The notes under the pieces are model-generated. The model had not been told where the DNA came from. It ran no database searches and saw only the letters and a program-made list of their open reading frames with translations. The translations under genes and the position numbers were made by a program. Below, one piece after another: positions 51,972-64,000 of a stretch of 64,000 nt of DNA (position 1 is the first letter of the stretch; each line of letters starts with the position of its first letter). Source of the DNA: Bacilli bacterium (GTDB lineage Bacteria > Bacillota_I > Bacilli_A > RF39 > UBA660); the NCBI GenBank assembly GCA_017511945.1, contig JAFWHR010000001.1, forward strand, positions 16,654 through 80,653, given 5' to 3'.

Positions 51972-52223
51972 CTAATTATTATTCTGCGTGTTACTATCAT
52001 TTTGTGTTGATTGTCCATTTTGTGTTGACTGGCCATTTTCTTCATTTGGTCTCTCAGGTGGTTGATTGTTTTGACCATTTGTCTTTCCAGGCAAATTTCC
52101 TCCAGGCATTCCAATTTGATGGTTATTACATGTCACACTTTTAGTATATACTAAAAACGCTCCTGTTGAAATTACCGCACCAACTAATAAACCTATCACA
52201 AAAATTATCATTTTTTCCTTCAT
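51972..52223 (-). CDS. small membrane-anchored protein with NGQSTQN repeats
   Basis: 83 aa. One TM helix followed by a Gln/Asn/Pro-rich low-complexity tail. Confidence 0.35.
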   Translation of the reverse strand: MKEKMIIFVIGLLVGAVISTGAFLVYTKSVTCNNHQIGMPGGNLPGKTNGQNNQPPERPNEENGQSTQNGQSTQNDSNTQNNN

Positions 52224-52336
52224 TTAATTCCTCCATTCCTTTTAACAAAATAGTATTTTTTATTAATATTTCACCTCCCACAAATTGATAATAACTGACA
52301 AAAATTAAAAGAACATTAAATATTTCATAAATGTTC

Positions 52337-53548
52337 CTATTTTTTAAAACTTATTTTAAATGTCGTTTTACCATCAAAAGAATAAGCATTAATCATTCCA
52401 CCATGATTAATAACTATATTCTTAGCTATCGCAAGCCCTAAACCATAACGATTAGATTCCCTATTTCTAGATTTATCGCCTCTATAAAACCTTTCAAATA
52501 TCTTTTCCTCATCCCCTACTTTTATTGGATCACCTGAATTTGTTATTTCTATGTTAACAACATTTTTAGTTTTATTCAAAATGACATATATTGTAGATTT
52601 CTTATATCCATGTTTAACCGCATTATCTAATATTATCGAAAATAATCTTTCCATTTCTTCCTTACTACATTTAAACATAATATCTTTCTCAATATCAGTT
52701 TCAATTTTAATATTATTTTCATAAGCAATAGAATCAAATGTTAAACAGATTCCCTGAGCAATCTTAGATAAATTTTCTTCTCTATAGCTATCTATAGATA
52801 CACCATTTTCTAATTTTGATAAATCTAGTAAACTCTTAATTAAAGTACTCATTCTTTCAGATTCATATTTGATATTATCTATATATTTTTGATTATTTTT
52901 ATCACATTTGAGTTCATCAGAAGATGCCATAATTACTGCCAGTGGTGTTTTAAGTTCATGTGACGCATCTGCAATAAATTCTTTCTGCTTGTCAAACGCT
53001 TCTTTTGCAGGTTTAGTAATTCTTTGAGTAATCTTTTTAGACACATAATAAATGATAATCTCAAATCCCAATAATATAATTATTGAATAAATTAAAGTAA
53101 ATATAAGTCTATTAGTAATGCTTTTAATATTAATAATGACAATTGTATTTGATTTATAATTATATGAATAATTATCGAAATATAAGTTTCCAACTTTTAA
53201 TTCTTCTTTATTATTAATAATTCTCTGTGCAACTTTTTGAACATCAAAACTACTATTATTACTGTGATTAATTATCCTTTCTATTTTATTACCATCTAAT
53301 TTAACAGTGTATACTTCATAATCCATGATCATCATATTATCTAAATCTCTGTCTTTTGGATTAGGTCTTGAAGGATTTAAATCAGAAGGTTCTGGGATTT
53401 TTTTCTCTTCGATAAAACTCAAATTCCTCTTAACATTGTCATATTCTTTTTTATAGGAACTGCCATTATAGACAATCATGCCAGTTACTACAAAAAATGA
53501 TAAAATGAAAAATATAGTTTTAAATACCTTTTTATTTAGTTCCTTCAT
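52337..53548 (-). CDS. sensor histidine kinase
   Basis: 403 aa. Two TM helices. H-box (ADASHELKTPL) and N/G-box ATP-binding motifs (DNAVKHG, GLGLAIAKNIV). Confidence 0.85.
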   Translation of the reverse strand: MKELNKKVFKTIFFILSFFVVTGMIVYNGSSYKKEYDNVKRNLSFIEEKKIPEPSDLNPSRPNPKDRDLDNMMIMDYEVYTVKLDGNKIERIINHSNNSSFDVQKVAQRIINNKEELKVGNLYFDNYSYNYKSNTIVIINIKSITNRLIFTLIYSIIILLGFEIIIYYVSKKITQRITKPAKEAFDKQKEFIADASHELKTPLAVIMASSDELKCDKNNQKYIDNIKYESERMSTLIKSLLDLSKLENGVSIDSYREENLSKIAQGICLTFDSIAYENNIKIETDIEKDIMFKCSKEEMERLFSIILDNAVKHGYKKSTIYVILNKTKNVVNIEITNSGDPIKVGDEEKIFERFYRGDKSRNRESNRYGLGLAIAKNIVINHGGMINAYSFDGKTTFKISFKK

Positions 53549-54230
53549 TGTTATACTCCATTTTATATCCTAAATTTCTAAGTGATTTTATTTGAACATT
53601 TGAATTAATCATCTTTAACTTTTTTCTAATAAATGATAAATATACCTCTAAATTATTAGACATAGAATTATTATCTAATCCCCATACTTTATCATATATC
53701 ATCTCTTTAGATAACACTTGATTTGGATTATTCATAAAATACTCTAAAAGTTGAAATTCTTTATTAATTATATTAATTTTTTCATTGCTGTTTTTATTAA
53801 AAATATCAGATGTTTTTAAATCTAAAGTTAAATCTCCAAATTCGAGACTATTATTTTGCACTTTATCACTTCTTAACCACACATTAACTCTTGCAACAAC
53901 TTCATCAATATGAAAAGGTTTAGAAATATAATCATTCGCTCCTTCACTAAAACCGAGTAATTTGTCTTCTATTTCCGATTTAGCAGTTAACATTATTACC
54001 TTTGTTTTTATATTATTCTTCTTAATTTCCTTTAATATTTCAATTCCATCTATACCAGGTAGCATTATATCTAATAATATTAAATCATATACATCCATTA
54101 AAGCATTATAAAGTCCATCTTCTCCATCAAGTGAAATATCGACTGTATATTTCTCCTTTTTCAATCTATCAGCTACTAATTCAGCAAGCAACTTTTCATC
54201 TTCCACAATCAATATTCGCATAATTTCCAC
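53532..54230 (-). CDS. OmpR-family response regulator
   Basis: 232 aa. Receiver domain (RILIVEDE, DLILLDIMLPGIDG) and a C-terminal winged-helix DNA-binding domain. Confidence 0.88.
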   Translation of the reverse strand: MEIMRILIVEDEKLLAELVADRLKKEKYTVDISLDGEDGLYNALMDVYDLILLDIMLPGIDGIEILKEIKKNNIKTKVIMLTAKSEIEDKLLGFSEGANDYISKPFHIDEVVARVNVWLRSDKVQNNSLEFGDLTLDLKTSDIFNKNSNEKINIINKEFQLLEYFMNNPNQVLSKEMIYDKVWGLDNNSMSNNLEVYLSFIRKKLKMINSNVQIKSLRNLGYKMEYNNEGTK

Positions 54231-54349
54231 CTCAAATATAATTATACATTTATTTATTAAATAAATATTAAACAGTTATCATTAAATTAATTATAACATA
54301 ATTATTTATCATTTTTTACATCAAAAAAAGTCCATATTTTATAGACTTT

Positions 54350-54790
54350 TTATTTAAATTTTATTTTTATATTACCATTACCTAAATCAGGTAAATTGTC
54401 AATATGTCCTATTTTAGTATAACTATATGATGTATCAAATGATTTATAAAACAAAACCAAACAGTTATCTCCATAAAGCATAATATCACCAGCATTAATT
54501 CTTTTAGGACTATATGAATCCATTGGCAACGCATTATCTAAATATACATACTTTTCATTACCATTTAATTCCTCCATATCAAATTCCAAAGGAAGCATAT
54601 TAATAAAGCTTTTAACTGTTTTATTATCTTCTAAATTAATTATATATTCCTTTCCATCTATTATTGCATTCATTGAATTAATCACCTCATAAGTATTAGC
54701 ATTAACTTCATTATCCTTACTACTTGAACTGCAACCAGTAATCATTATAACTGAAATTATTATACTAAATAATACTCTCTTATACATCAT
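54350..54790 (-). CDS. lipoprotein, unknown function
   Basis: 146 aa with lipobox ITGC. Confidence 0.4.
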   Translation of the reverse strand: MMYKRVLFSIIISVIMITGCSSSSKDNEVNANTYEVINSMNAIIDGKEYIINLEDNKTVKSFINMLPLEFDMEELNGNEKYVYLDNALPMDSYSPKRINAGDIMLYGDNCLVLFYKSFDTSYSYTKIGHIDNLPDLGNGNIKIKFK

Positions 54791-55773
54791 ATATTTTCCC
54801 TAATAAATTTTTCTATTTTATCAAAAGGAATCTTATCTTTTTTATCATATAAATCTGTATGAGTAGCATTTGGAACAATTACAAATTCTTTATTATCTTT
54901 AAACTTAGAATCTTTTATCATATTATCATATGCATCTTTACCCATATAAAATGAATGTGCTTTATCACCATGAACAATCATTACTGCATTTCTTATCTCA
55001 TTTGCATAGTAAAATAGTCTAACATTCATCATAGATGTATTAGTTTGAATAGCCCAACCACCATTTGAATTTAAACTTCTTTTATGATATCCTCTGGGAG
55101 TTTTATAATATGAATGATAACCTTGTAAAAACTCAGCAGAACCATTCGGAAGTGGATCAATTACTCCACCAGCTAATGCATAGTTACCATTTTTATAATC
55201 TTCATTTCTTTGTTTATTAAGATTTACTCTTAACTGATATCTAGCCTCTTCATTATCTTGCTCATCAAAATATCCATTTCCAGCAACTCTAGACATATCA
55301 TACATAGTAGATACTATAGTCACCTTAACTCTCGTATCAATACAAGCAGTTTGAAGAGCCATTCCACCCCAACCACAAATACCTATAATACTAATTTTCT
55401 CAGAATCTACATTATCTAAACTTATTAAAAAATCTACTGCTGATTGAAAATCTTCGACATTAATATCATAAGAAGTCATATATCTTGGAAATCCTCCAGA
55501 TTCACCTGTGTATGATGGATCAAATGCAATTGCCAAAAAACCTCTTTCTGCCATCTCTTGTGCATAAAGTCCACTTGACTGCTCTTTGACTGCACCATAT
55601 GGTCCAGAAACTGCAATAGCAGGTAATTTACCACTATAATCTTTAGGCTCATACATATCTGCAACCAAAGATATTCCAAAATGATTTTTAAACGTTACCT
55701 TTTTATGATTAACCTTATCACTTAATGGAAATACTTTATCCCATTCATTAGTAATTTTTAACTCTTCTGTCAT
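54787..55773 (-). CDS. alpha/beta hydrolase family protein
   Basis: 328 aa. Nucleophile elbow GICGWGG (GxSxG variant with Cys) and typical fold spacing. Confidence 0.6.
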   Translation of the reverse strand: MTEELKITNEWDKVFPLSDKVNHKKVTFKNHFGISLVADMYEPKDYSGKLPAIAVSGPYGAVKEQSSGLYAQEMAERGFLAIAFDPSYTGESGGFPRYMTSYDINVEDFQSAVDFLISLDNVDSEKISIIGICGWGGMALQTACIDTRVKVTIVSTMYDMSRVAGNGYFDEQDNEEARYQLRVNLNKQRNEDYKNGNYALAGGVIDPLPNGSAEFLQGYHSYYKTPRGYHKRSLNSNGGWAIQTNTSMMNVRLFYYANEIRNAVMIVHGDKAHSFYMGKDAYDNMIKDSKFKDNKEFVIVPNATHTDLYDKKDKIPFDKIEKFIRENI

Positions 55774-55790
55774 CTTATAACCTCCTTTTC

Positions 55791-56321
55791 TTATATTTTA
55801 CTTAACATCTCTATTAATCTACCTGCATGATCAATAGCTTTTTCTTCTATTTCTTTCCCTTTATCATTTCTTATTTGATAAGATACTCCATAAGTTACAA
55901 TATTGCCTACATATTCCATTTGACATAATTTACAAGTTGCTTTAATTGGATTTAGAAAGTTATTTATATTACTATATACTTCTTTAGGTGCACCTGTAGT
56001 AAAAGATACTATCATTTTTTTACCTTTTAACTTATCACCAGTAGTGCCATGTGAAAATCCATGTTCAAACACCTCTTCCATCCATCGTTCTAATAATGAT
56101 GGCATCGAATACCAAAATATTGGATATTGTAAAACTATAATATCTGCTTTTATTAGTTTTTTTTGTTCTTCTTCTACATTAATTTTATAATTTGGATATA
56201 ATTCACTTAAATAATCTATTATAGCACCTGGTACCCTTCTACTTACCTCTTCTAATATCTTTTTATTAGCAACTGAATTAAGAAGATCAGTATGCCCTGA
56301 AACAATTAAAATATTCTTCAT
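55791..56321 (-). CDS. flavodoxin-like fold NAD(P)H-dependent oxidoreductase
   Basis: 176 aa with the N-terminal ILIVSGH pattern. Confidence 0.6.
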   Translation of the reverse strand: MKNILIVSGHTDLLNSVANKKILEEVSRRVPGAIIDYLSELYPNYKINVEEEQKKLIKADIIVLQYPIFWYSMPSLLERWMEEVFEHGFSHGTTGDKLKGKKMIVSFTTGAPKEVYSNINNFLNPIKATCKLCQMEYVGNIVTYGVSYQIRNDKGKEIEEKAIDHAGRLIEMLSKI

Positions 56322-56328
56322 TCTAAAC

Positions 56329-56655
56329 CTACTTTCTTATATATTTTTCATCCTGACTATTACTATCATATAAAACATATTTTTCTACTTTCATATGTAA
56401 ATCATATTTATCCCTAAGTTCCATTATCTTATTCATAGTTTCTGATTCATGATGCTTATCAAGAGATTCTTGATTCTTCCAACTATCAATAAGTAAGATA
56501 GTTTCTTTATCTTCTAATGGCTCAAAATAATCATATCTCAAATTACCCTCTTTACTTCTTATTTCTTCTACTATTCCAGAAGAAATCATTTCACTCGCAA
56601 ATTTTTTAGCTGATCCATTTTTACCACTATAATAAATGTTTACAGTAAAACTCAT
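56329..56655 (-). CDS. ABM-domain (antibiotic biosynthesis monooxygenase-like) protein
   Basis: Start taken at the second ATG (MSFTVNIYY), which is preceded by gggagtg. Roughly 108 aa with an alpha+beta ferredoxin-like pattern. Confidence 0.45.
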   Translation of the reverse strand: MSFTVNIYYSGKNGSAKKFASEMISSGIVEEIRSKEGNLRYDYFEPLEDKETILLIDSWKNQESLDKHHESETMNKIMELRDKYDLHMKVEKYVLYDSNSQDEKYIRK

Positions 56656-56749
56656 ATCATCACTCCCCATAATCTATTTTACCATATAAAAGGAAGATTT
56701 ATCCATCTTCCATTTTAAATATCTACAGCTTTAAAATTATTTTTCATAT

Positions 56750-59700
56750 TTATTCTACACTTTTTAAAGATTCTATTAAATCTATTTTCTTTAAAGTAAA
56801 ATGCACACCAATACTTACAATTAATGAAAATAAAATCATAAATCCAAAAGTTTGCAGATAACTATCTAAATGAATACCTTTTATATACTTCATTGTGTTT
56901 ATTTCTATTGAATCTATCAGACTGTATGTAAATATAGTTCCCACAACTAAACCTACTATTATTCCTAGAATAGTTATTATTAATTCCTCCTTCATGATAT
57001 AATTATCTACTTCTTTATCATAATAACCTAAAACTTTTAACGTAGCTATTTCCCTTTGTCTTTCACTTATATTAATATAAGCTAAACTGTATAGTACTAC
57101 AAATGATAATGCTCCTGAAAATATTACTAAAACATAAACAATAATATTTAATGATTTAAATAGAGTATTAGCTTGCTGTTTGGCAGTTGATATTAAAATT
57201 GTGCTTAATATATGTGGATTTTTACTTTTTATATTATTAATTATCTCTTCTTCCTTATTTATGTCTTTAAATTTTAAATACTGTGTATTTATACTATATT
57301 CACCTATATAATTTTTATATGTCTCCTTCGTCATATATATATAGTCTCCAATATAGTTTTCACAAATATTTGAAATTGTAAATTCATAAGTTAAGTTATT
57401 GCTTTCCAATATTTTAATTTTATCTCCAACTTTTTTATTAAAATATTTAGCTAATTTTTCTGTAACAATTACAGAGTTTTCTTTTAAACTTATTTCTTCT
57501 TTAGTTTCAGCATCTTTAAACGTTAAAACTTTTTTAAATTCTTCATTATTATCTGGAATTATAAAAGATAATCTTTTATTCTCTACTTCAACTTGATCTA
57601 TTTTTGCATATACATTAAAATCTAAAGGCTCACTATTAGTATAAAGATCTAAATCTTGAGCATTCAATTTTCCATCCAAAGATATTAAAGCATCATTATG
57701 ATTTATTTCATTATATTGTTTATCTACAACATATGATATTGAATCTTTAATTCCATATCCTGCAAGCAAAATCATTGTACAAGATGCTATTCCAAATATT
57801 GACATTAATATTCTTCTTTTATATCTAAATATATTTCTAATTGTTAATTTATTAGAATATTTTATTCTATCCCATAAAAGTGATACTCTTTCCAAAAAGA
57901 TTTTTTTACCAATTGGTGGTGCTATTGGTCTTAATAATGATGTTGTCTTCTCTCTCACTAAATTATTAATCGTAATTATAGTTGAACCTACTATACATAA
58001 TATACTTATCAATATTCCAATAACTATAGGAAAAAAATCTGTACTATATACTGTTACTGGAATATTATGCATTATTTTAAATACTCTAATTATTATATCA
58101 GGAATTAAAGTATAACCTCCAATCGCACCTATAATTCCACCAATTAATGTTGCTAATAATGAATAAATGATAAACTTAAGTCTTACATCATGATTACTAA
58201 AACCTAATGCTTTCAAAGTACCTATTTCACTTCTGTCTTCAATAGCCATCCTTGCCATTGAAAGAAGACTTATCAAAATTGATACTAGGAAAAATATTAC
58301 AGGAAACAAATTGGAAAGTTTATCAACACTATTATAACTACTTACATATGTTATATACTCATTATTATCCTCTCTAGTTTGTATAAACCAAATCGGTTTT
58401 TCTATTTTATCTATCCTTTCTTTCGCTAAAAAAATCTCTTCCATTACTTTTTTCTTATTTTCTTCAAATTCCTTTACACCCTTATAATACTGTTCTGAAT
58501 TTAAATTGTATTCATTTAGACCAATATTATACTTTTTAATTCCTAAGTTATAGTCCCTAATTCCTGAATTGTATTTAATCATTCCATTTTGATATTGTTT
58601 ATATGCTTTATTTAATTCTTCTTCATTTTCATTTATCAATCTTGAATTATCATAAAACTGTCTATAACCATTTTCAATATCTCTAACTGCTGAAAAGAGT
58701 TTCTTAACTTCCTCTTTTTTATTTGAAAAACTCTCTAAATATGACCTAATTTCATTATAATATGCAAAATTTGTTGGAATACTTTCTCTAATTAAAATAA
58801 TAAATTTTTCATCTAAAATTAATTCTTTTAATTGATTTATTGTTACAACATCTAATATTTCATTTAATTTTAAATCCACCTTTTCAAGTAATTCTTTTTC
58901 ATTTATTCCGTATTTATTAAACATTTCTTCCAAATTTATACCATAGACACTTGCTATAGATTTTATATTAACTAAACTACTTTCTATAGTTTCTTTTATA
59001 TTTATCTCATCATTAAAAAGCTTAATAATATCATTAACAGAAAAAGATGAACTATCATATTTATTTACAAATTGTGATAATTTGTCATAAGTAATATTAT
59101 AATCTCCTATTTCATTTAATTTATTTTCTATTTCTTTTTTTCCATCATTTAATTTTTGACTAACCCTAGTAAGTTCTTCTTTAGAATTACTTATTAATTT
59201 ATATCCGTTTTGTATTTCAATATTTGCACTATCTAATACTCGTTTTGCATTATCTAATTCTATTTTGCCATCATCCAATTTTCTTTTAGCATTTTCTAAC
59301 TCAACTTTACCATTATCTAAATCTATTTTATATTGATCTAGTTTTTTTTGAACAATATCTAATTCACTATTCGCCTTTTCAATTTTCTCTTTTAATTCAC
59401 TATTTGCCTCATTAAGCACTTTAGTATATCTTTCAGTTTGCCTTTTTTCTTTTATCCCGTCAATTGTTTTAACATCATTTTTAATTTTTTCTAGATAATC
59501 ATCCTTCGTTGTTGTATATTTTGTAGCCTCATTATCTATCACATATATTTCTGTATAATAATTTAAATTAAATAATTCTTTAGAAACATAGGAATAGTAT
59601 GCTACTTGACCATTTCCTAAACTTGTGTTCCCCCTACTTTGTGTAGCTTGATGATTATTTAAATACTCAGGACTTCTGACAATTCCCACAACTATTAATT

Positions 59701-60190
59701 CATCAGTTTTTAATGATTTATCATCACTTTCTAACTCTAACTTTATCTTACTACCAATTTCATAATCTGTTTTATAATCAATTCCCTCTTCTACTACAAT
59801 TTCATTATAATTTTCTGGCATTCTACCTTTAATAAGTAAAATATTGTTAATATCTTTATTTATTTCATGCATCCTCAAAACGGCTTTATGCTTTCCATCA
59901 TTAAAAATAGCATCTTTAGTATGTGAACCCAATACTGTGTATTGACTATTTAATTTTTGAATTTCTTCTACATCCTCATCTTCTAGTCCAAGAGTTGAAA
60001 TAACTTTCAAATCATACATTTTATTATCATCATAGTATTTGTTTAATGATTCTAACATCGTAGGTCCTGACATTTTCATTCCTACAAAAAATGAGACTCC
60101 TAAAACACTCAGAATGCATAATGAAAAAAATCTCTTTTTCGATTTTTTTATTTCTCTTAGACTCATAGTTACTATTCTATTCTTCTTCAT
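56750..60190 (-). CDS. ABC transporter permease, giant duplicated FtsX-like (MacB-type) with long coiled-coil ectodomain
   Basis: 1146 aa. N-terminal and C-terminal FtsX-type 4-TM modules (C-terminal …LKKIDLIESLKSVE). Between them is a roughly 500-aa extracytoplasmic region containing a coiled coil with tandem DNGKVELENAKRKLDDGKIELDNAKRVL repeats. Confidence 0.75.
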   Translation of the reverse strand: MKKNRIVTMSLREIKKSKKRFFSLCILSVLGVSFFVGMKMSGPTMLESLNKYYDDNKMYDLKVISTLGLEDEDVEEIQKLNSQYTVLGSHTKDAIFNDGKHKAVLRMHEINKDINNILLIKGRMPENYNEIVVEEGIDYKTDYEIGSKIKLELESDDKSLKTDELIVVGIVRSPEYLNNHQATQSRGNTSLGNGQVAYYSYVSKELFNLNYYTEIYVIDNEATKYTTTKDDYLEKIKNDVKTIDGIKEKRQTERYTKVLNEANSELKEKIEKANSELDIVQKKLDQYKIDLDNGKVELENAKRKLDDGKIELDNAKRVLDSANIEIQNGYKLISNSKEELTRVSQKLNDGKKEIENKLNEIGDYNITYDKLSQFVNKYDSSSFSVNDIIKLFNDEINIKETIESSLVNIKSIASVYGINLEEMFNKYGINEKELLEKVDLKLNEILDVVTINQLKELILDEKFIILIRESIPTNFAYYNEIRSYLESFSNKKEEVKKLFSAVRDIENGYRQFYDNSRLINENEEELNKAYKQYQNGMIKYNSGIRDYNLGIKKYNIGLNEYNLNSEQYYKGVKEFEENKKKVMEEIFLAKERIDKIEKPIWFIQTREDNNEYITYVSSYNSVDKLSNLFPVIFFLVSILISLLSMARMAIEDRSEIGTLKALGFSNHDVRLKFIIYSLLATLIGGIIGAIGGYTLIPDIIIRVFKIMHNIPVTVYSTDFFPIVIGILISILCIVGSTIITINNLVREKTTSLLRPIAPPIGKKIFLERVSLLWDRIKYSNKLTIRNIFRYKRRILMSIFGIASCTMILLAGYGIKDSISYVVDKQYNEINHNDALISLDGKLNAQDLDLYTNSEPLDFNVYAKIDQVEVENKRLSFIIPDNNEEFKKVLTFKDAETKEEISLKENSVIVTEKLAKYFNKKVGDKIKILESNNLTYEFTISNICENYIGDYIYMTKETYKNYIGEYSINTQYLKFKDINKEEEIINNIKSKNPHILSTILISTAKQQANTLFKSLNIIVYVLVIFSGALSFVVLYSLAYINISERQREIATLKVLGYYDKEVDNYIMKEELIITILGIIVGLVVGTIFTYSLIDSIEINTMKYIKGIHLDSYLQTFGFMILFSLIVSIGVHFTLKKIDLIESLKSVE
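59220..59345. repeat. intragenic tandem repeat in the permease coiled-coil region
   Basis: About 39-bp units (…gcattatctaattctattttgccatcatccaatttt… / …gcattttctaactcaactttaccattatctaaatct…). Confidence 0.6.
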
Positions 60191-60215
60191 ATTTTATTAA
60201 CCCATTTCCCTTTTT

Positions 60216-60917
60216 TTACCACTCAATTCCTTTTACACTAATTGGATTTTTATTTATTATTACATCTTCTGCTTTGCCATTTCTAAACTTTATTACTCTA
60301 TCTGCCATAGGTGCCACCGCACTATTATGAGTTATTATGATAGTTGTTATTTTTTCTTTCCTGCAAGTTTTTTCTAACAATTCTAGTATCTGTTTACCAG
60401 TTTTATAATCTAATGCTCCCGTCGGTTCATCACCTAATAGTATTTTAGGCTTTCTTGCTATAGCCCTAGCAATAGATACTCTTTGCTGCTGTCCTCCTGA
60501 CATTTGTGAAGGAAAATTGTCCATTCGTTCTTCCAATCCAACTTTTTTTAAAGCTTTTTTTGCATCAAGTGGATTTTTACACATTTGAGTACCTAATTCA
60601 ATATTCTCAAGTGCAGTTAAATTTTGAACCAAATTATAAAATTGAAAAACAAAACCTATGTCATTTCTTCTATATTTAATCAGTTGTTTTTCACTAATTT
60701 TTGTAATATCTACCCCATCTACTATTACATTTCCATCAGTTACTTCATCCATTCCCCCTAATATATTTAAACAAGTAGATTTTCCAGAACCAGATTGTCC
60801 TAATATTACAACTAATTCTCCCTTTTCTATTTCAAAATTTACTTTATCTAAAGCTTTTAATTCAACTTCTCCCATTTTATAAATTTTTTCAACATTTTTA
60901 AATTCTATATAAGCCAT
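60216..60917 (-). CDS. ABC transporter ATP-binding protein (MacB/LolD-like)
   Basis: 233 aa. Walker A (GQSGSGKST), signature (MSGGQQQRVSIARA), Walker B (ILLGDEPTGALD). Confidence 0.9.
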   Translation of the reverse strand: MAYIEFKNVEKIYKMGEVELKALDKVNFEIEKGELVVILGQSGSGKSTCLNILGGMDEVTDGNVIVDGVDITKISEKQLIKYRRNDIGFVFQFYNLVQNLTALENIELGTQMCKNPLDAKKALKKVGLEERMDNFPSQMSGGQQQRVSIARAIARKPKILLGDEPTGALDYKTGKQILELLEKTCRKEKITTIIITHNSAVAPMADRVIKFRNGKAEDVIINKNPISVKGIEW

Positions 60918-60969
60918 TTTGTTCTCCTTTCAGGAGTAGTGTGTGATTAATATGTTTTATTCTATCCTA

Positions 60970-61015
60970 CTTAATTTTATCACATTTCTAATATACTTAC
61001 AATTGTTTTATCTAT
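60970..61015 (-). promoter_or_regulatory. candidate sigma-A promoter for the ABC transporter operon
   Basis: The minus strand reads TTGTAA, then 17 nt, then TAAAAT, about 60 nt upstream of the ATPase ATG, with RBS aaggag. Confidence 0.4.
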
Positions 61016-61029
61016 AATGAATAATTCTT

Positions 61030-62316
61030 TTACAATTTAATATCTTGAACTTTAATACTTTTATCATTACCTACTTGTTTAATGATATTAATTATACTAT
61101 CATTTATATCTTTAACATCTTCTTCTGAATACTTTTCCAATAAGTAATCATATATTATTTTAACTTTATTCTTATATTCAAAAATATGTGCAACAATAAC
61201 ATCAGTTCCATATGTTCCAATATTATTATCCCCATCTATTTCAAAATTAATATTCATTTTATCAGTATCTATCTGTAAATTTTGATAAGACAAAAATACA
61301 TTAGATGGAACAGGTCTATCATCATTATACTCTTTAAACAATTCGCTTCTATAGTTATAAATATAATCCATATGTTTATAGCAAGATTTTAGTAATAATC
61401 TCATTTCTCTAGTAAAATCTAAAAACGTAGCATTTGGTATTTTAACGACAAAATATGCAGCTTTTGTCACCATACCAGGAGTAAGCATTTCTTTAATATT
61501 TCTTCTATTTCTGTTTGCAGCAGATAAGAAAAAATTAGTTAAATTCGTTTTTTTATAAACATATAAAGCATATACACTCATGTAAAATGTCGAATCAGAT
61601 ATTTTGTTCATCTTGCAATAGTCTTTAACTATATTTACAATACTATCATCTATATCGAAAGTAAGCTTTTTACCATTTGTAAAAGAATATTTTTCTTTTT
61701 TAGAAGGAATATATCCAATATCTGGCACACCATTTTCAAACATTTTGTCCCAATATTTTTTATCTTGCAAGCACTTTTTACTGTAAGGATATTTTTCTTC
61801 TGACTTAATAAAATCTAGATAAGAAAAAAATATAATTTTATTTACCGTTTTACTATAGTATCCTAGTACTTCATATAATAATAGTCCCAATGTATATCCA
61901 TCTCCTATTGCGTGATTTAATTTTAAAAATATACCACCAAAACCATTATTATACCTATAAATAACTACGTGAAATAAAGGTGAATCAAACATTTCAAAAG
62001 GCTTATTTATAATATCATCTTTCAGTTTTTTAACATCATTTTCAGTATTTACATCAACTATTTCGAAATTCTGCTCCTCATAATCTTCAAAATACTGTAA
62101 TATTTTATCATCTTCTTTGCAAAGTTTTATTCTCAAATTATCACTTTTTTTAAAACAATAATTTAGTGCTTCCTTTAACCTATCAAAATCTATTTTTTGA
62201 TTTATTTTTAAATGTCCCCAAATGACATTTTTAGGTGTAAAAACAATATTTCCACTATCATCAAAATCAACTAAAACTCTAATTTGTGGCAATGTTAAGT
62301 TATATTTTTTTTTCAT
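61030..62316 (-). CDS. standalone condensation-domain / CoA-dependent acyltransferase superfamily protein
   Basis: 428 aa. An HHxxxDG-type active-site motif (LKLNHAIGDGYTL) lies about 130 aa from the N-terminus. Size and motif position resemble NRPS C domains and WS/DGAT or PapA5-type acyltransferases. Confidence 0.5.
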   Translation of the reverse strand: MKKKYNLTLPQIRVLVDFDDSGNIVFTPKNVIWGHLKINQKIDFDRLKEALNYCFKKSDNLRIKLCKEDDKILQYFEDYEEQNFEIVDVNTENDVKKLKDDIINKPFEMFDSPLFHVVIYRYNNGFGGIFLKLNHAIGDGYTLGLLLYEVLGYYSKTVNKIIFFSYLDFIKSEEKYPYSKKCLQDKKYWDKMFENGVPDIGYIPSKKEKYSFTNGKKLTFDIDDSIVNIVKDYCKMNKISDSTFYMSVYALYVYKKTNLTNFFLSAANRNRRNIKEMLTPGMVTKAAYFVVKIPNATFLDFTREMRLLLKSCYKHMDYIYNYRSELFKEYNDDRPVPSNVFLSYQNLQIDTDKMNINFEIDGDNNIGTYGTDVIVAHIFEYKNKVKIIYDYLLEKYSEEDVKDINDSIINIIKQVGNDKSIKVQDIKL

Positions 62317-62342
62317 ATATTTCTCCCACCATCACTTATTAT

Positions 62343-62393
62343 TCATGAATGACTGTAATACTGACACCACTTTTCTATATTACAAGTTTTCAT
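62343..62393 (-). CDS. possible 16-codon small ORF (MKTCNIEKWCQYYSHS) between promoter and C-domain gene
   Basis: An ATG immediately follows an extended -10 element (tgGTATAATtatt ATG) and there is no SD. The product has two Cys, one Trp and three Tyr. Highly speculative. Confidence 0.15.
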   Translation of the reverse strand: MKTCNIEKWCQYYSHS

Positions 62394-62554
62394 AATAATT
62401 ATACCACAAAATCTTATTTATATTATAAAACCACATTTTTTAGTATTAAATAAAAATATACAGTTCAAAATATAATGATATTGCACTTCATTTTATCACT
62501 TGAAAATCAAAATACTTTTCTAAAAAGGTATTTATTAAATTAATATAAACCAAT

Positions 62555-63307
62555 TTAAATAAATATTATCATAAATATATCTGCAATCAGATGACATAAT
62601 CCATGTGATATCATTGCATATCCAATACCATATTTTCTATAAAGATGCCCAAACGCTATCCCCAATCCACCATTAAATAAGAAACATCTAAAAATTATTA
62701 ATGGTGTCAATGTAGTCATAGTAGCAGTTGATGGTAAATGTCCTGCTGCAAAAAGTAATGCAGCCAAAATATTAGCAATAGCAAAAACCAAAGTAGACAT
62801 CTTGTTATTAAAGAATAATTTAGAAATAATAAACACTGTAAATGACATAAAAAATAATCTCATCATTACTTCCTCAATAATACCGCCAATAAGTATTCCA
62901 CTAATAATTTTATAAATAGTAGGTTTTAAAGTATATTGTTCATATACCCAAGTACTAAGTGACCCAAAAATTATCTTATCCCCAGGAAATAAAATTAATG
63001 CACCAACAATACTAATAATTATTGTAGGAAAAATAGCCTTTTTAGAAAGTTTAAATTCTTTCCACAGTTTAATTTTTTTTGATAATAATATACCAATACT
63101 AGCAAGTAATACCCCATATAGAAGTGCATATTGAAACATTGCAGAAATAACAACCATTTCCTTAGTTATATTATTATCTTGCATTTGTTTTAACAAATCT
63201 TTAGATAATGAATCAAAGCCATATACTCCAGTGCAGTATCCACCAAGTAATCCACCAAATAAAACTATTAATAAGAATTTCCAATTATCTTTAAAAAAAT
63301 TCTTCAT
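62555..63307 (-). CDS. CPBP family intramembrane metalloprotease (CAAX protease/Abi-like)
   Basis: 250 aa polytopic protein. Motif 1 (EEVMMRLFF), motif 2 (FAAGHL) and motif 3 (HGLCH). Confidence 0.7.
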   Translation of the reverse strand: MKNFFKDNWKFLLIVLFGGLLGGYCTGVYGFDSLSKDLLKQMQDNNITKEMVVISAMFQYALLYGVLLASIGILLSKKIKLWKEFKLSKKAIFPTIIISIVGALILFPGDKIIFGSLSTWVYEQYTLKPTIYKIISGILIGGIIEEVMMRLFFMSFTVFIISKLFFNNKMSTLVFAIANILAALLFAAGHLPSTATMTTLTPLIIFRCFLFNGGLGIAFGHLYRKYGIGYAMISHGLCHLIADIFMIIFI

Positions 63308-63930
63308 TAGTTGTTATCTCCTTTACTCATTACTTTTTTAGACCAACTTCTTTTTTTACATTTAGGACATTTTAAATATCTAGTTGTATTTAGATGGGGA
63401 GCTATCAATACCTTTAGATAAGAATTAGGTATATATCTGTGATGACAATTTTTACATTCATAATATCCTGCATCTACCTCAAGTTTTAAAGAATAAAAAC
63501 CTACCATTACTAAAATGAAAGTAGATATAACAACAATAATACCAAATAAAATACCTTCTCCTAATGTGTATGATGCAAGTAGTGTTATCCCAATGTAAAA
63601 AACAACCGTGGTAATACTTAAAACATACATATCCGTTATCATCTTTTTGTTTTTTAATTCTTCTTGTTTAGCAAGTTCAATAAGTAATTCATCCGTTTTC
63701 TTTTCATAATTTTTCATAGTTATCTTCTCACCATTCAATAGTTCATTTACATTGATTCCCAATATTTTACATAAATCTAACATCTTATCAGCATCTGGTA
63801 GAGATAAACCTCTTTCCCATTTTGACACAGCTCGATTAGTTATATGTAATTTTTCTGCTAATTGTTCTTGAGTTATATTTTTCTTTTTTCTGCAATCAGC
63901 AATAAATTTTCCAATCTTCATTACATCCAT
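63307..63930 (-). CDS. membrane-tethered XRE-family HTH regulator with C-terminal zinc ribbon
   Basis: 207 aa. N-terminal HTH_3 (ITQEQLAEKLHITNRAVSKWERG), two TM helices, and a C-terminal CxxC…CxxC (CKNCHH…CPKCKK). Its end overlaps the CPBP start (ATGA). Confidence 0.65.
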   Translation of the reverse strand: MDVMKIGKFIADCRKKKNITQEQLAEKLHITNRAVSKWERGLSLPDADKMLDLCKILGINVNELLNGEKITMKNYEKKTDELLIELAKQEELKNKKMITDMYVLSITTVVFYIGITLLASYTLGEGILFGIIVVISTFILVMVGFYSLKLEVDAGYYECKNCHHRYIPNSYLKVLIAPHLNTTRYLKCPKCKKRSWSKKVMSKGDNN

Positions 63931-64000
63931 GAACTTTCTCCTTTCATAACTTTATTATAAAATAAACCTCTTAAAAATTACACATACCAATGGTTGAGTT

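Follow-up and report, generated by a model that had tools for sequence, protein, structure and literature searches.

The window analysed here, a 64,000-nucleotide stretch of contig JAFWHR010000001.1 from a Bacilli bacterium (UBA660; assembly GCA_017511945.1), carries on its minus strand the genes of a free-standing condensation (C) protein of the nonribosomal peptide synthetase (NRPS) type, an ABC ATPase, and a giant permease with two fused FtsX modules (Table 1). Comparison with related loci indicates that these three genes, with an operon-like layout, are the real conserved unit within a run of five co-directional open reading frames (ORFs) at 56750-63930. The first-pass annotation of this DNA had read all five genes as one undescribed module. 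Its gene calls, coordinates, and domain assignments are correct for every gene; its five-gene scope was not borne out, as only the C, ATPase, and permease genes travel together across the compared loci. The claim of novelty stands for the smaller unit: our literature search found no description of a C domain combined with an FtsX/MacB-type ABC system or of giant coiled-coil FtsX permeases. The three-gene core is thus undescribed in the literature searched and is built from known kinds of components.

The neighbourhoods of the C-protein homologues were fetched from public assemblies (~520 kb of flanking sequence) and compared by tblastn. The C gene adjoins the ATPase/permease pair, in the same orientation, in 11 distinct loci (window/L001, L002, L004, L006, L012/13, L014/15, L020/21, L024/25, L031, L034, and L046). 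In clade A, whose C proteins share 61% identity or more with that of the window, the gene order is C-ATPase-permease. In clade B, where they are 50-54% identical and have the canonical HHxxxDG motif, the order is ATPase-permease-C. The gene of a distant stand-alone C protein (P0204, 37% identical) starts 10 nt past a permease gene whose product belongs to this permease family and, over the fragment compared, is 49% identical. The gaps between the C and transporter genes are 10-112 nt where measured, and no terminator interrupts the window unit before the end of the permease gene. The hairpin ~40 nt past the permease stop codon is the only minus-strand terminator-like site in 56000-64000, with none between the C and ATPase genes. 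Throughout the fetched flanks, C genes lie beside the ATPase/permease pair far more often than elsewhere. In 18 C clusters, the longest contig has the same size as that of a permease cluster, which independently supports the co-residence of the two genes. We consider this conserved linkage solid.

Three further loci (L022, L037, and L040) hold decayed or deleted remnants of the triad. L022 retains only fragments of the ATPase and permease genes (L022:11165-12872), 5 kb from the C gene. In L037 and L040, as in clusters P0065 and P0067, a deletion has joined the C protein (residues 1-212) to the C-terminal ~100 residues of the permease. In some populations, therefore, the triad is being lost.

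The C protein matches Pfam Condensation (PF00668) over residues 35-427 with E=7.3e-36 and 124 bits (cut-off 30.6). No other Pfam family, WS/DGAT and PapA included, matches at E<=0.01, and all seven core motifs, C1-C7, are recognizable. In the NHAIGDG motif, His135 and Asp139 are invariant and Gly140 nearly so in alignments of 20 and 25 sequences, and the earlier assignment of this protein as a C domain therefore holds. The first residue of the motif ([N/S/H]HxxxDG) is Asn or Ser in clade A and His in clade B. The AlphaFold2 (AF2) model has a predicted local distance difference test score (pLDDT) of 88.6 and a predicted template modelling score (pTM) of 0.85, and its top Foldseek matches are all NRPS C domains (E ~1e-26). 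TM-scores of ~0.75-0.8 to the C domains of Txo2, LgrA, SrfA-C, and TycC indicate the two-lobed fold related to chloramphenicol acetyltransferase. The protein is a true NRPS-type C domain with the conserved catalytic His and Asp. Hydropathy analysis revealed neither a signal peptide nor a transmembrane (TM) segment.

Among 1.8 billion representatives searched exhaustively with HMMER, the stand-alone C proteins made up just about four clusters at 50% identity (P0044, P0192, P0204, and P0278), and all other matches were multimodular NRPSs. In all ~37 short NRPSs (1.2-2.6 kaa) among the top matches, the best-matching stretch is the N-terminal C domain, and in the NRPSs of L005, L007, and L010 this domain outscores the internal C domain by far. 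The nearest relatives of the C protein are accordingly N-terminal C domains of small NRPSs, with 27-32% identity. N-terminal C domains of NRPSs are usually acyl-transferring "starter" domains, and by position these relatives would be initiating domains as well. Starter C domains of small NRPSs from gut Clostridia share the catalytic motif and fold with the window C protein. However, they are covalently followed by adenylation (A) and T domains and use a carrier-bound acceptor, whereas the members of the window family are separate proteins of 425-444 aa that contain no carrier domain.

The partner of the C protein belongs to the type VII (MacB/FtsX) ABC transporters, as seen in the two FtsX matches, the MacB_PCD match, and the LolD/MacB-type ATPase. 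The best NCBIfam matches of the ATPase are LolD, DevA, and MacB, all under the equivalog cut-offs. Its sequence identity is 84-92% in every C-linked locus and 73-79% in relatives without a C gene. The permease is predicted from hydropathy and AF2 secondary structure to have eight TM helices, in the order TM1, ectodomain 1 (~43-621), TM2-4, a short polar linker (747-792), TM5, ectodomain 2 (MacB_PCD, ~815-1008), and TM6-8. In the AF2 model (pLDDT 79), a coiled-coil hairpin interrupts the alpha/beta core of ectodomain 1, in agreement with the coiled-coil ectodomain proposed earlier. The hairpin (230-594) comprises a helix of 131 residues (230-360), a tip of small helices (~100 residues, 368-470), and a return helix of 117 residues (478-594). 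This unusual architecture is a solid feature of the permease. At 0.15 nm per residue, the predicted stalk would be ~18-19 nm long and, if the model is correct, could reach into or across the Gram-positive wall.

At 59230-59366, the DNA itself is repetitive, with units of 21 and 63 nt that encode heptad-like repeats. Permeases of similar size (1047-1170 aa) and ~40% identity over their full length occur without a C gene in many other Bacillota. The different lengths of the permeases in L014 (6969-10196, 1075 aa) and L015 (4640-7993, 1117 aa) arise from an assembly gap (a run of N/X) and not from repeat variation; apart from this 42-aa gap the two are 99.9% identical, and their C proteins are identical.

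The best fold match of the permease among solved structures is Escherichia coli YbbAP (E=3e-20, TM-score 0.66, target-normalised), followed by LolCDE, BceAB, MacB, and HrtBA. YbbAP and the acyl-(thio)esterase TesA, the product of an adjacent gene, form a complex for which a role in drawing hydrophobic molecules out of the membrane has been proposed (PMC12646458). YbbAP-TesA, described in 2025, was the first known case of a type VII ABC transporter cooperating with an enzyme that modifies lipids (PMC12646458; PDB 9ge6-9ge8). Both permeases are single polypeptides with two FtsX modules and two extracytoplasmic domains served by a separate LolD/MacB-like ATPase, and in both systems the gene of an enzyme of acyl (thio)ester chemistry adjoins the transporter genes. 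The partners themselves differ, being a predicted cytoplasmic C-domain acyltransferase in the window and a periplasmic SGNH hydrolase in YbbAP-TesA; no SGNH/TesA-like gene was found in any compared C locus. With eight predicted TM helices, the window permease may also depart from the reported 10-helix fold of YbbP, and it differs in the ~360-residue hairpin and tip of ectodomain 1, which are not described for YbbP (PMC12646458), and in sequence, with only ~8-9% identity in the structural alignment. BceAB modules are further removed, with a ~650-aa permease of 10 TM helices, one large ectodomain, and adjacent BceRS, whereas the window permease has 1146 aa and two ectodomains. Unlike BceRS, the response regulator/histidine kinase pair four genes downstream in the window is non-adjacent and not conserved with the triad. 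The concept of a C-superfamily acyltransferase that hands a lipid product to a dedicated membrane exporter is familiar from PapA5/MmpL7 of mycobacteria, which differs from the window triad in enzyme subfamily, transporter (RND/ABC-2 versus type VII), and phylum.

Our tentative reading, held with somewhat less than even confidence, is that an acyl amide or ester made by the C enzyme partitions into the membrane and is extracted from it by the type VII ABC machine. The His/Asp site would transfer an acyl group to a free amine or hydroxyl from a thioester donor, either acyl-coenzyme A or an acyl carrier protein (ACP) encoded elsewhere. The amphiphilic amide or ester would then partition into the membrane. 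The ATPase would drive conformational changes in the double-FtsX permease (mechanotransmission), by which the permease may pull lipid-like molecules from the outer leaflet and release them away from the cell, possibly guided by the stalk. The conserved linkage, the motif and fold of the C protein, its kinship with N-terminal C domains, and two precedents, YbbAP-TesA and the free-standing C enzyme OaaC considered below, speak for this reading. The data show the domain identities, the intact catalytic motif, the predicted folds, the operon-like layout, and the linkage of the genes; we infer that the donor is acyl, the acceptor free, and the product amphiphilic, and that substrate passes from enzyme to transporter. 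The general idea of the first-pass annotation, an acyl-transfer step coupled to an ABC machine, thus survives as the best reading for three genes, while its extension to five does not. In a bolder form, which we regard as doubtful, a C enzyme independent of carrier proteins would serve a type VII ABC mechanotransmitter as its dedicated partner in the cytoplasm, and this new "synthase-extractor" would drive its lipid-like product, an amide or ester, out of the membrane and, along the coiled-coil stalk, through the Gram-positive wall.

Several observations weigh against this reading. Type VII ABC systems normally pair with extracytoplasmic proteins, and the C protein has neither a signal peptide nor a TM segment. 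Its similarity to solved starter domains or to OaaC is no higher than to elongation C domains. A six-frame motif scan found no carrier protein in the 64-kb window or the 8 kb upstream, the phosphopantetheine-motif matches being chance ones inside large genes, and no dedicated adenylating enzyme is encoded there; no ACP appears in any neighbourhood table of the compared C loci. The sole ligase nearby is PaaK-like, comes from a very large family, and is missing at other C loci. The ATPase/permease pair occurs without a C gene in related bacteria (L026/27, 61% permease identity; L028-30, 39%), so the transporter has its own function, older and broader than the link to the C protein. Conversely, C paralogues are found away from the transporter in L016, L018, and upstream in L001.

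In a second explanation, possible at a low probability, the triad serves detoxification or the response to envelope stress. The transporter would clear membrane-active toxins met in the rumen (for example free unsaturated fatty acids, lysolipids, or antimicrobial lipopeptides), and the C protein would neutralize these or their amine/alcohol partners by acyl conjugation. Chloramphenicol acetyltransferase, of the same fold superfamily as C domains, inactivates its substrate by acyl conjugation and offers an analogy. A detoxifying role, directed at lysophospholipids, has been put forward for YbbAP-TesA itself (PMC12646458). Most FtsX-type ABC systems known from Firmicutes, including BceAB and HrtBA among the fold matches, serve resistance. 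The membrane-signalling regulators near the triad vary by lineage (XRE and CPBP in the window; an extracytoplasmic function (ECF) sigma factor and a weak DUF4179 match in L012), two-component systems lie downstream in the window and in L022, and CPBP proteases, known as bacteriocin-immunity or stress factors, recur beside the triad. The decay in L022, L037, L040, P0065, and P0067 further suggests that the triad is dispensable. On the other hand, the regulators are not conserved with the triad, and the ATPase/permease pair is highly conserved over a wide clade (ATPase 73-92%), unlike an accessory resistance cassette. The C protein has no PADLOC or resistance-family match, and we know of no precedent for an NRPS-type C domain as a resistance enzyme.

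Co-location without shared chemistry is, in our judgement, unlikely. Here the transporter would be a lineage-wide envelope machine, for example an FtsEX-like regulator of wall hydrolases with the coiled coil fused in, and the C gene would be co-transcribed with it or occupy a tolerated insertion spot. The coiled-coil stalk does recall the EnvC/PcsB adaptors of FtsEX. The good conservation of the transporter without the C protein in sister lineages fits this explanation, as do the unrelated contexts of C paralogues, which lie beside Fic, Peptidase_M13, or ABM/flavodoxin genes, and the much faster divergence of the C protein (37-81% identity) relative to the ATPase (84-92%). However, the adjacency outlasts the change in gene order and persists to 37% C identity. 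The constant co-direction, the short gaps free of an intervening terminator, and the frequency with which C genes lie beside this transporter in the fetched flanks also argue against mere co-location. If it were the case, the finding would reduce to two unremarkable families side by side.

A further explanation draws on the fatty-acid amide (FAA) pathway of gut bacteria. OaaC from gut Clostridia is a free-standing C enzyme that makes fatty-acid amides from acyl-ACP and free amines, and fatty-acid amides from such enzymes of gut anaerobes act on host receptors (PMC13310621). In the FAA pathway, the free-standing OaaA (an A domain), OaaACP, and OaaC make N-acyl amines (PMC13310621; Chang et al. 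2021 as cited there). The C domains of this pathway form a clade nearest to starter C domains and carry the motif (D/H)HxxxD[S/A] (PMC13310621). OaaC and the window family are alike as free-standing proteins of ~430-465 aa from gut anaerobes outside an assembly line, with a non-canonical first residue of HHxxxDG, and a free small-molecule acceptor is plausible in both. The window C protein could be a true member of an OaaA/OaaACP/OaaC-type pathway, with the A enzyme and ACP encoded elsewhere and the ABC transporter as exporter. The loss of the first His in clade A, as in many FAA C domains, and the N-terminal C domains as nearest relatives are in keeping with this proposal. We nevertheless find it improbable, as the window protein appears, on motif and score, to fall outside the FAA clade. 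Its motif, [N/S/H]HxxxDG, ends in DG and not in the FAA-typical D[S/A]. PDB entry 12kh, identified as OaaC from its DHxxxDS motif, matches weakly (32.5 bits), below the C domains of bacitracin and tyrocidine synthetases (44-67 bits); with the family profile it scores 48.5 bits versus 67 for BacC and 64 for TycC. The C loci contain no adjacent ACP and no adjacent co-conserved fatty-acid-activating A domain or fatty-acyl-AMP ligase. Their conserved partner is instead the type VII ABC transporter, and the FAA structure paper mentions no transporter (PMC13310621).

If real, the conserved pairing of a C domain with a type VII transporter would add a third mode of use to those of C domains and a new class of partners to those of type VII ABC systems. 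In ruminant-gut bacteria, so far seen only in metagenomes, it would also indicate a metabolite or envelope lipid yet to be explored. Were the synthase-extractor form correct, uncultured ruminant-gut Bacillota would secrete a hitherto unknown class of acyl metabolite or modify their envelope in a new way. The permease, with its YbbP-like fold and ~360-residue hairpin and tip, is widespread in related Bacillota and provides a testable object for the mechanotransmission model.

Table 1 Features of the locus in the 64,000-nucleotide window.
Feature	Coordinates	Strand	Size	Basis and remarks
Membrane-anchored XRE regulator	63307..63930	-	207 aa	HTH_3 E=1.5e-15 (Pfam); lineage-specific neighbour
CPBP/Rce1-like intramembrane protease	62555..63307	-	250 aa	Pfam Rce1-like E=3.5e-9; recurrent non-orthologous neighbour of the triad
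Extended -10 element TGgTATAAT of the C-ABC-permease unit	62398..62406	-		Sequence reading
ORF MKTCNIEKWCQYYSHS in the 5' leader, judged a non-gene	62343..62393	-	16 codons	Sequence reading
Free-standing NRPS-type C protein (core gene 1)	61030..62316	-	428 aa	Pfam PF00668; predicted cytoplasmic
ABC ATPase, MacB/LolD (type VII) kind (core gene 2)	60216..60917	-	233 aa	Pfam ABC_tran E=2e-35
Fused double-FtsX permease (core gene 3)	56750..60190	-	1146 aa	FtsX x2 E=5.9e-32; MacB_PCD E=2.9e-10
Terminator-like hairpin closing the three-gene unit	56692..56711	-		~40 nt past the permease stop

The extended -10 promoter recognized in the first-pass annotation was confirmed, and a TGnTATAAT-like box is kept at the equivalent site upstream of homologous C genes (L001a, L014, L018, L020, and L022). 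Since this promoter lies upstream of the C gene, the C unit is probably a transcription unit separate from the XRE and CPBP genes. A Cys/Trp/Tyr-rich ORF of 16 codons had been suggested as a possible peptide gene between the promoter and the C gene. Its ATG is 4 nt past the -10 hexamer, with no Shine-Dalgarno sequence, and the ORF is absent in all seven upstream regions of homologous C genes that were inspected. Given this poor placement for translation and the lack of conservation, we reject it as a gene and regard it as a chance ORF in a ~75-nt 5' leader; the proposed acylated peptide signal thereby loses its substrate gene. When small ORFs from 16 loci, genic regions included, were all compared with one another, the matches listed were only out-of-frame shadows of large genes. 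Rfam scans of the window (52000-64000) and of L001 (1-10000) gave no match to a riboswitch, a T-box, or any further RNA family in the leader regions.

The XRE regulator has a hydrophobic stretch (~residues 97-152) whose hydropathy is compatible with two TM helices, and a C-terminal zinc ribbon, CxxC-25-CxxC, at Cys159, Cys162, Cys188, and Cys191. As noted previously, its gene overlaps the CPBP gene: the stop and start codons share 1 nt (TAATG), and the two genes are translationally coupled. The CPBP motifs EExxxR, FxxxH, and HxxxN/D are intact as EEVMMR, FAAGH (residue 186), and HLIAD (residue 239). Close XRE homologues stand beside a C gene only in L001, which corresponds to the window, and in L039. 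CPBP genes flank the triad in three loci (the window, L020/L021, and L024) and nowhere else in the fetched sequence, and no hidden CPBP was found among the unannotated neighbours of the C loci. The three CPBPs show no significant similarity to each other (pairwise BLASTP E>0.04), which hints that CPBPs are at most loosely associated with the triad and are not a fixed component of it. The supposed typical pairing of XRE and CPBP did not recur in three membrane-anchored XRE homologues on plasmids, which have no CPBP neighbour, although this is a weak test.

The position of the XRE and CPBP genes beside the triad is taken by different membrane-signalling regulators in different lineages. In L012 (8120-9723), the triad is instead preceded by the genes of an ECF-type sigma factor and of a single-pass membrane protein of 356 aa. 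The latter matches DUF4179 with E=1e-4, below the Pfam cut-off, and by analogy is possibly an anti-sigma factor. In the clade-B arrangement of L024, a chagasin-like protease inhibitor (Inhibitor_I42) is encoded between the C and CPBP genes (L024:7122-7517).

A five-gene peptide-signal or bacteriocin-like system, in which a Cys-rich peptide is acylated by the C protein, cut by the CPBP protease, exported by the ABC transporter, and sensed by the XRE regulator, would account for the common direction of all five genes, the XRE-CPBP coupling, and the recurrence of CPBPs near the triad, but it is very improbable and, as far as the sequences tell, largely refuted because it is not conserved: the peptide ORF is neither conserved nor well placed, no conserved intergenic small ORF emerged among the matches listed for the 16 loci, the XRE regulator is lineage-specific, the CPBPs are non-orthologous, and the promoter probably sets the C unit apart.

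The window edge truncates the locus, and the metagenome contig L001, whose proteins are 100% identical, extends it upstream of the XRE gene by a second C gene, a PaaK/F390-synthetase-like ligase, and a 679-aa protein. The paralogous C protein has 428 aa, is 66% identical to the window C protein, and carries the motif SHVICDG (Pfam Condensation E=3.8e-41). The adenylate-forming ligase beside it (L001:2996-4357, 453 aa) was considered as the missing adenylating partner and rejected, being absent from every other C locus and belonging to a very large independent family (1838 matches at E<1e-20). The best 120 of these matches are 74-97% identical, and those with a source name come from metagenome-assembled genomes (MAGs) of Lachnospiraceae, Clostridia, or Firmicutes. 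That groups with different labels share so conserved a ligase suggests that it has recently spread by horizontal transfer or is very strongly constrained. The 679-aa protein adjoining it (L001:539-2578) has no Pfam, NCBIfam, or PADLOC match, and its sole trace is a precomputed weak match to pEK499_p136.

All close relatives are metagenomic or MAG sequences, under the labels uncultured Erysipelotrichaceae, Clostridia, or Clostridium. Record names indicate ruminant gastrointestinal samples as their origin, and the sample name of L001 suggests a ruminant gut catalogue. None of the close relatives is on a viral contig or plasmid, the plasmids yielding just NRPS C domains of at most 27.5% identity. 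With no viral relatives, only distant plasmid matches, and no PADLOC match for the C protein or the CPBP protease, a mobile or defence origin was rejected. The rest of the window is ordinary chromosome, encoding PolC, PolA, RNase R, and tRNA synthetases.

Downstream of the permease gene, the segment 52337-56670 encodes one protein resembling ABM monooxygenases and another resembling flavodoxins, an S15-type alpha/beta hydrolase, a cyclophilin-like lipoprotein, and an OmpR-type response regulator together with the cognate histidine kinase. The genes of this segment are partly syntenic in related contigs (L022, L023, and L037), and in L022/L023 the ABM gene is directly upstream of the C gene. 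Fic-domain proteins are encoded a few genes from a C-family gene in three otherwise unrelated contexts (L012:18347-19318, L016:11560-12606, and L018:8621-9589), and two of the three carry helix-turn-helix domains.

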